From Escherichia coli (GTDB taxonomy: Bacteria > Pseudomonadota > Gammaproteobacteria > Enterobacterales > Enterobacteriaceae): a stretch of DNA of 352 nt. The stretch lies in the NCBI RefSeq assembly GCF_003334335.1, contig NZ_QOWQ01000210.1; one strand, written 5' to 3'. Position 1 is the stretch's first letter; the number at the start of each line of letters is the position of its first letter. This document shows, piece after piece, positions 2-352 of this stretch. A program made the position numbers and the translations under genes. A model generated the notes under the pieces. It ran no database searches and was not told the origin of the DNA. It saw only the letters and a list, made by a program, of their open reading frames with translations.

Positions 2-130
2 CGTCACCCTGAACTGATGTTCCGTCACCCGGAAAACGAGTACGACTGGCTGAGCTCAGACGCCGCTGTGGATGAGGCCCTGCTCATAAACGAATACACC
101 TTTACCGAAGGCGGTCTGCGCGCCGGCTGA
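2..130 (+). CDS. 3' end of an upstream ORF, 5'-partial (42 codons plus TGA stop); product unknown
   Basis: Seen in sequence: + frame 2 is open from position 2 to the TGA at 128-130 and translates to RHPELMFRHPENEYDWLSSDAAVDEALLINEYTFTEGGLRAG*. The other two + frames hit stops at 10-12 (TGA) and 15-17 (TGA). It is co-oriented with and 49 nt upstream of the antitoxin gene, consistent with an operon. I do not recognise the peptide, and it does not match my recollection of the DUF987 (YeeT) protein that precedes yeeU in E. coli K-12. Product left unassigned. Confidence 0.5.
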   Translation, partial: RHPELMFRHPENEYDWLSSDAAVDEALLINEYTFTEGGLRAG

Positions 131-167
131 CCTGTCATCGTTAAACCATTCTTAACCGATTTTCTGT

Positions 168-172
168 GAGGA
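168..172 (+). promoter_or_regulatory. Shine-Dalgarno sequence (GAGGA) for the antitoxin gene
   Basis: Seen in sequence: GAGGA at 168-172 with a 7-nt A/T-rich spacer (173-179, TTTTATC) before the GTG at 180. This is canonical spacing for an enterobacterial ribosome-binding site. Confidence 0.6.
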
Positions 173-179
173 TTTTATC

Positions 180-352
180 GTGTCAGACGCACTCTCCGGG
201 ACAATGCTTCCCGACGACAATCACGACCGCCCCTGGTGGGGGCTGCCCTGCACCGTGACGCCCTGTTTCGGGGCACGTCTGGTGCAGGAGGGTAACCGCC
301 TGCATTACCTTGCCGACCGCGCCGGTATCAGAGGCCTGTTCAGCGATGCAGA
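180..352 (+). CDS. cbeA: CbeA/YeeU-family type IV antitoxin (YagB/YeeU/YfjZ family), N-terminal 57 codons; 3'-partial, continues beyond the window
   Basis: Seen in sequence: GTG start at 180, preceded by an in-frame TAA at 153-155 and the SD at 168-172; the frame is open to the window end. Translation: VSDALSGTMLPDDNHDRPWWGLPCTVTPCFGARLVQEGNRLHYLADRAGIRGLFSDA. Established knowledge, from memory: this closely matches the N-terminus of E. coli K-12 YeeU/CbeA (MSDTLPGTTLPDDNHDRPWWGLPCTVTPCFGARLVQEGNRLHYLADRAGIRG...), including the long N-terminal extension that separates YeeU-type proteins from the shorter YfjZ/YafW paralogs. Full-length proteins are about 120 aa, so roughly half the gene lies outside the window. 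Confidence 0.85.
   Translation, partial: MSDALSGTMLPDDNHDRPWWGLPCTVTPCFGARLVQEGNRLHYLADRAGIRGLFSDA

Follow-up and report, generated by a model that had tools for sequence, protein, structure and literature searches.

We asked whether an Escherichia coli reading frame that opens with GTG, and whose first residues depart from those of the K-12 protein CbeA (YeeU), is set apart from its relatives by either feature. The frame begins at position 180 of a stretch of 352 nucleotides, which was analysed as a whole and is called the window here. Answering the question required that the gene be identified, that its start codon be located and compared across related loci, and that the variation at its 5' end be weighed against that in the rest of the gene.

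Identity of the gene and origin of its upstream spacer

Sequence 100% identical to the window is present in E. coli chromosomes, NZ_CP025859.1 (890088-890439) among them, and 260 records among complete E. coli genomes matched the whole of it at at least 99% identity. Of 5,426 complete E. coli genomes, 4,804 contained a related locus; the median copy number was 2 and the highest 11. The parts of the window assigned below, from yeeT to cbeA, lie on its plus strand. Positions 1-17 hold the 3' end of yeeT, which encodes a DUF987 protein ending in ...VTLN before a TGA stop at 15-17; the yeeT CDS in NZ_CP025859.1 likewise ends at the base corresponding to window position 17. After a spacer of 162 nt, which carries no annotation in NZ_CP025859.1, the PGAP/RefSeq annotation of that record places cbeA from window position 180, as WP_001278232.1, a 122-aa protein named 'type IV toxin-antitoxin system cytoskeleton bundling-enhancing antitoxin CbeA'. 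The window's share of cbeA/yeeU is 180-352, that is, the first 57 codons only, and translation of 180-350 gave VSDALSGTMLPDDNHDRPWWGLPCTVTPCFGARLVQEGNRLHYLADRAGIRGLFSDA. Codons 2-18 (183-233) encode a tail outside the Pfam CbeA domain, and codons 19-57 plus 2 nt (234-352) cover the start of that domain, where the protein is identical to K-12 CbeA.

The full-length protein of the identical locus matched PF06154 (CbeA_antitoxin) with E=5.6e-53 over residues 18-117, corresponding to model positions 1-100 of 101, so that residues 1-17 fall outside the match. It also matched PDB 2H28, the E. coli YeeU structure, with E=1.1e-77 over residues 1-121 and at 93% identity, while NCBIfam and PHROGs returned no match for CbeA. 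In the window protein MSDALSGTMLPDDNHDRP precedes the WWGL motif, giving the extension of about 14-17 residues that marks the long-tail subtype; in the alignment, the first residue of YfjZ and of YafW falls in the column of residue 15. Outside the window, a CDS for a CbtA-family toxin (PF06755) starts 89 nt past the cbeA stop on the same strand of NZ_CP025859.1, and the order of antitoxin followed by CbtA-family toxin was also seen in comparison loci L003-L010 and L013-L016. Upstream of the locus in NZ_CP025859.1 lie agn43, an IrmA-family gene, DUF905, DUF932, an antirestriction gene and yeeS, an island type like K-12 CP4-44. By every membership feature that we compared in the sequence, the window gene is a CbeA/YeeU-family antitoxin gene of the long-tail subtype, and the Pfam, 2H28 and K-12 CbeA matches bear out the original prediction of a YeeU/CbeA-type gene. 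K-12 CbeA neutralises CbtA without binding the toxin, by a type IV mechanism that involves FtsZ/MreB bundling (PMC5371832, PMC5086665).

Other candidate features in the window were set aside. Minus-strand ORFs of 22-40 aa across 152-305 were rejected as genes, being antisense to a conserved coding region, and a promoter and terminator scan produced one weak match each, both on the minus strand, which we took as chance. Past the toxin gene, the island in NZ_CP025859.1 is decayed (locus L001 7012-12170), with DUF5983 and DUF957 genes that are truncated, pieces of IS110 and IS3, and ltrA, for a group II intron reverse transcriptase.

We then considered the spacer between yeeT and cbeA. In strains N779 and A37 an intact gene, annotated as encoding a 'hypothetical protein', sits between yeeT and the antitoxin gene; the products of such intact genes are WP_000086768.1, of 227 aa (L007 69-752), and WP_000086759.1, of 214 aa (L009 69-713). 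A gapless alignment paired window positions 18-179 with the 3' end of the L007 gene for WP_000086768.1 and the short spacer that follows that gene, and 147 of 162 positions were identical. On this alignment the yeeT-cbeA spacer is the deletion scar of a gene of 214-227 aa, with roughly the last 150 nt of that gene retained at 18-169. The intact gene matched PHROG 5162, a family of unknown function, with E=8e-36, and searches of Pfam, NCBIfam and PDB with the 227-aa protein found no match. Its ancestral stop is the TGA at 167-169, which overlaps a GAGGA motif at 168-172. A 37-codon ORF at 17-130, whose ATG overlaps the yeeT stop, was considered as a translationally coupled small gene and rejected as a 3' remnant of the longer one: its ATG was made by the junction of TGA with TG, its early end by a TGC-to-TGA change at 128-130, and NCBIfam had no match for it. 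A 50-aa version of this scar ORF is listed as a 'hypothetical protein' in one strain's annotation (L005).

The K-12 spacer (L002 3975-4025) reflects a different, larger deletion, in which the opening and closing codons of the same intervening gene are fused into a 16-codon mini-ORF, MSRIIATTGPFLADFL. Both in K-12 and in the intact arrangement, the upstream frame has its stop codon 10 nt before the GTG, where it overlaps the Shine-Dalgarno motif of cbeA, a position that would allow translational coupling of cbeA. The scar ORF of the window allele already stops 50 nt before cbeA, whose translation would then depend on the gene's own Shine-Dalgarno motif and GTG. It is therefore possible, judging from these arrangements, that coupling of cbeA to an upstream frame differs between alleles. 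Public databases hold many mis-called versions of cbeA (for example clusters P0005, P0009, P0016, P0021, P0023, P0032 and P0008), which include N-terminal extensions and fusions to yeeT or the scar ORF, of 126-212 aa; these extended and fused calls stem from alleles that have no in-frame stop upstream. One cluster of 122-aa CbeA proteins bears the source name 'toxin CbtA'.

GTG as the start codon of cbeA

The reading frame opens at GTG 180-182 and is closed upstream by a TAA at 153-155 (TAG in K-12, through a difference at position 155). Between this stop and codon 9, GTG 180 is the sole ATG, GTG or TTG in frame. The GAGGA motif at 168-172 (AAGGA in K-12), which was compared across ten loci and whose consensus and spacing suggest that it acts as the Shine-Dalgarno sequence, stands 7 nt 5' of it. 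The original prediction had contrasted the GTG of this frame with a Met start in K-12. However, the K-12 cbeA start region reads ...GGATTTTATC GTG TCA GAC ACA CTC CCC..., and its start codon is itself GTG. Moreover, GTG occupied the annotated cbeA start in all ten E. coli loci that we sampled, which were 86-100% identical to the window and came from K-12, one O157:H7 strain and isolates from poultry, cattle, swine, a rodent and humans. GTG initiation is thus the norm for E. coli cbeA, and the suggestion that it distinguishes the window allele falls away. Initiator GTG is decoded as fMet; residue 1 is therefore the same in the window allele and in K-12, and the 'V' written there is an artefact of literal translation, not a difference from the 'M' of the reference protein.

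Further comparisons concerned how firmly GTG is kept. Codons 1-3 (GTG TCA GAC) were invariant in nucleotides across the ten loci, synonymous sites included, which fits constraint on the initiation region. Database proteins extended upstream read ...FIVSD..., placing Val, and hence a GTN codon, at the start codon in several tail types. We also searched the 5,426 complete genomes with sequences spanning the start in two allele contexts. The true 60-mer around the start of the window allele was matched by 347 records at at least 99% identity, and its ATG-substituted version by none at that threshold. For a TLSGTTH-type allele, an ATG-substituted 78-mer found no exact match; its best full-coverage match, at 98.7%, differed by the one engineered mismatch. 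Taking annotation, ORF geometry, the Shine-Dalgarno motif and conservation together, we hold with high confidence that translation starts at GTG 180.

The T9M replacement creates an ATG at 204-206 that K-12 and eight other sampled loci lack, and as an initiator ATG is inherently stronger than GTG. Translation could then begin at, or also at, this allele-specific codon 9, yielding a protein of 114 residues without the first eight. However, the sole purine-rich run upstream of this ATG, GGGA, lies 2 nt away, too near to serve as a Shine-Dalgarno sequence, whereas the spacing of GAGGA is correct for GTG 180. The invariance of codons 1-3 and purifying selection on codons 11-18 (see below) indicate that translation of the tail begins at GTG 180 across the family, and Met9 was present in only 4 of 37 cluster representatives, the query counted, so that it cannot be the family start. 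Initiation at ATG 204 is thus extremely improbable, and GTG 180 stands as the preferred start.

RNA structure was considered as a cause of the tail variation and rejected. Folds of the start region in four alleles had z-scores of +0.15 to +1.3, no stabler than shuffled sequences, a small GGGAC...UCCCG hairpin at the start region was not kept in the HETNY allele, and no Rfam family was matched in the window at E values up to 1.

The original prediction had also proposed looking for clustering of GTG-start alleles by lineage. Among the E. coli loci sampled there was no such split, but the start codon did follow subtype and taxon. In long-tail relatives from other Enterobacterales the homologous codon is TTG (L013, L015 and L016, position 401); one of these is an Enterobacter soli-type protein and the other two come from Salmonella or other Enterobacterales. 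The Citrobacter koseri copy is called from an ATG three codons upstream of its TTG, which is present as well (L014 410); this TTG appears better spaced from an AAGG motif than the called ATG. The short K-12 paralogues yafW and yfjZ start with ATG (loci L011 2008, minus strand, and L012 4116). In this small sample, of 14 long-tail loci (10 from E. coli and 4 from other Enterobacterales) and 2 short ones, start-codon usage tracked subtype, with GTG (E. coli) or TTG (other Enterobacterales) in long-tail CbeA and ATG in YfjZ/YafW. The non-ATG start is an empirical correlate of the long-tail subtype rather than a published definition of it, and the window gene shares it.

One could speculate that long-tail CbeA keeps a weak initiator (GTG in E. 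coli, TTG in copies such as those of Enterobacter and Salmonella, and in neither tested context ATG) and invariant codons 2-3, holding antitoxin translation low or coupled to upstream translation, with residues 4-10 serving as an allele-specific stability determinant. We regard this as highly improbable. Were it true, the start region would serve to adjust the toxin:antitoxin ratio of a type IV system, and the setting of the A4/S6/M9 allele would differ from that of K-12. The split between GTG/TTG and ATG could interest students of expression balance in type IV toxin-antitoxin pairs.

Variation in the N-terminal tail

With the start codon shared, the difference between the window allele and K-12 at the 5' end reduces to the residues that follow. 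Pairwise alignment with K-12 CbeA showed that the two sequences are not identical and recovered the predicted differences. About three of the first nine residues had been expected to differ, and exactly three do: T4A (G189 for A; codon GCA), P6S (T195 for C; codon TCC) and T9M (TG205-206 for CA; codon ATG). The remainder of the visible protein, residues 10-57, is the same as in K-12, in line with the near identity that had been anticipated, with synonymous changes at 299 and 300 only. In all, the visible part differs from K-12 at eight bases, two of them in the leader (155 and 168), four nonsynonymous and two synonymous. Over the full gene, residues 10-104 are identical, five more replacements cluster in 105-122, and 114 of 122 residues (93%) are shared with K-12 CbeA.

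The MSDALSGTM tail recurs in database clusters P0001, P0014, P0019 and P0082, and the exact start region of the window allele occurs in about 6% of complete E. coli genomes. It is a distinct allele, as had been suggested. The three tail differences are real and reproducible and do not reflect sequencing noise, as the 260 whole-window and 347 60-mer records attest. The allele, its gene and its GTG start are already in public annotation (RefSeq WP_001278232.1), and hundreds of sequenced E. coli carry the allele.

To place these changes within the gene, we compared variability along its length. Column entropy, calculated from 37 representatives of E. coli-type clusters, averaged 0.72 bits over residues 1-18, 0.25 over 19-103 and 0.86 over 104-122. 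Most of the tail variation lies at positions 4, 6, 7, 9, 10, 15 and 17, and the window changes fall on three of these. By the Nei-Gojobori method, applied to only ten loci as phylogenetically non-independent pairwise sums, pN/pS was 0.84 for codons 4-10, 0.19 for codons 11-18, 0.09 for codons 19-104 and 0.53 for codons 105-118. The similar pS across segments (0.17-0.41) argues against a mutational hot spot, and the purifying selection on codons 11-18 indicates that the tail is translated. An AlphaFold2 model from a 38-sequence alignment gave the tail no secondary structure and pLDDT below 45; the model was poor overall (mean pLDDT 61) and carries little weight for disorder.

The role of the tail can be approached through the short paralogues. 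Wen et al. (2017, PMC5371832) found in over-expression experiments that the toxicity of both CbtA and YpjF is blocked by any one of YafW, YfjZ and CbeA. Since YafW and YfjZ block CbtA without a tail, tail-less proteins suffice, at least when over-expressed, and the tail would by extension be dispensable for toxin neutralisation in the window allele. The original prediction had taken the N-terminal extension as what separates YeeU-type from YfjZ/YafW-type antitoxins. The short type does lack residues 1-14, but it is also only 60-63% identical overall and differs at the C-terminus, so the extension is one distinction among several.

The high ratio in codons 4-10, about nine times the core value, could also be read as diversifying selection on the tail, which would tune protease sensitivity or the preference among CbtA-family toxins or cytoskeletal targets and would make A4, S6 and M9 functionally distinct. 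Tail variants are indeed many (TLPGTTL, TLSGTTH, KLSGITH, TLHETNY and ALSGTML, for example), and with several locus copies in a genome, discrimination between paralogues is conceivable. However, the ratio remains below 1, as relaxed constraint predicts; the tail lies outside the conserved domain; and the C-terminal end is equally variable, as expected of unconstrained termini. Cross-neutralisation of toxins by YafW, YfjZ and CbeA likewise revealed no specificity, although a subtler role, for example in stability or partner preference, could escape over-expression tests (PMC5371832). We consider diversifying selection quite improbable.

The tail variation is instead most likely neutral, as the original prediction proposed, the changes falling among the most variable columns. 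Taking the evidence together, positions 180-352 are very probably the 5' part of a GTG-started cbeA, in which T4A, P6S and T9M represent ordinary neutral polymorphism in one common allele. In this explanation, cbeA would encode the antitoxin of a type IV CbtA/CbeA pair on an Ag43-associated, CP4-44-like island of E. coli. Its GTG 180 would be read as fMet and served by GAGGA 168-172, as in K-12 and the other sampled E. coli copies. The three changes would fall in codons 4-10 of a 17-residue tail that is outside the domain, near-neutral and unneeded for neutralising toxin, and such properties point to standing polymorphism of an ordinary kind, which recombination between island copies may have shuffled and which has no demonstrated functional consequence. 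The significance of this known, common allele is accordingly small, one use being the correction regarding the literally translated 'V'.

The window allele shares its C-terminus, GSGGYVYLAVYPTPETKK (codons 105-122, L001 6492-6545, beyond the end of the window), with cluster P0003, of the KLSGITH type, and with L003, of the TLSGTTH type. Like C-termini with quite different tails suggest that the alleles may be mosaics produced by recombination between island copies.

Comparison with known systems

The closest known system is K-12 CbeA itself (YeeU, b2004; PDB 2H28; CP4-44), which is the same gene, with a protein of 122 aa in both cases. The K-12 gene has the GTG start and an equal Shine-Dalgarno spacing, and its neighbours are like those of the window gene: agn43 ... 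yeeS, yeeT, cbeA, and then a CbtA-family toxin gene and DUF5983. Besides the three tail replacements, the window protein differs from K-12 CbeA at the C-terminal positions S105G, C107G, D108G, M120T and N122K. The yeeT-cbeA spacer is 162 nt in the window and 73 nt in K-12, the two being different deletion remnants of one intervening gene. Shigella flexneri YeeU (PDB 2INW), aligned over residues 1-119 with E=8.6e-75, is of the long-tail type too, but has the tail MSDTLPGTTPPDD and several core and C-terminal substitutions.

K-12 YfjZ (CP4-57; PDB 2EA9 and 2JN7) and YafW (CP4-6) belong to the same Pfam family, have a yeeT-like (DUF987) gene upstream and were interchangeable with CbeA as antitoxins in over-expression tests (PMC5371832). 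They differ in being proteins of 105 aa without tail residues 1-14 and in starting with ATG, whereas the window cbeA starts with GTG. Their spacer to the toxin gene is 20 nt (PMC5371832), in contrast to 88-89 nt for long-tail cbeA.
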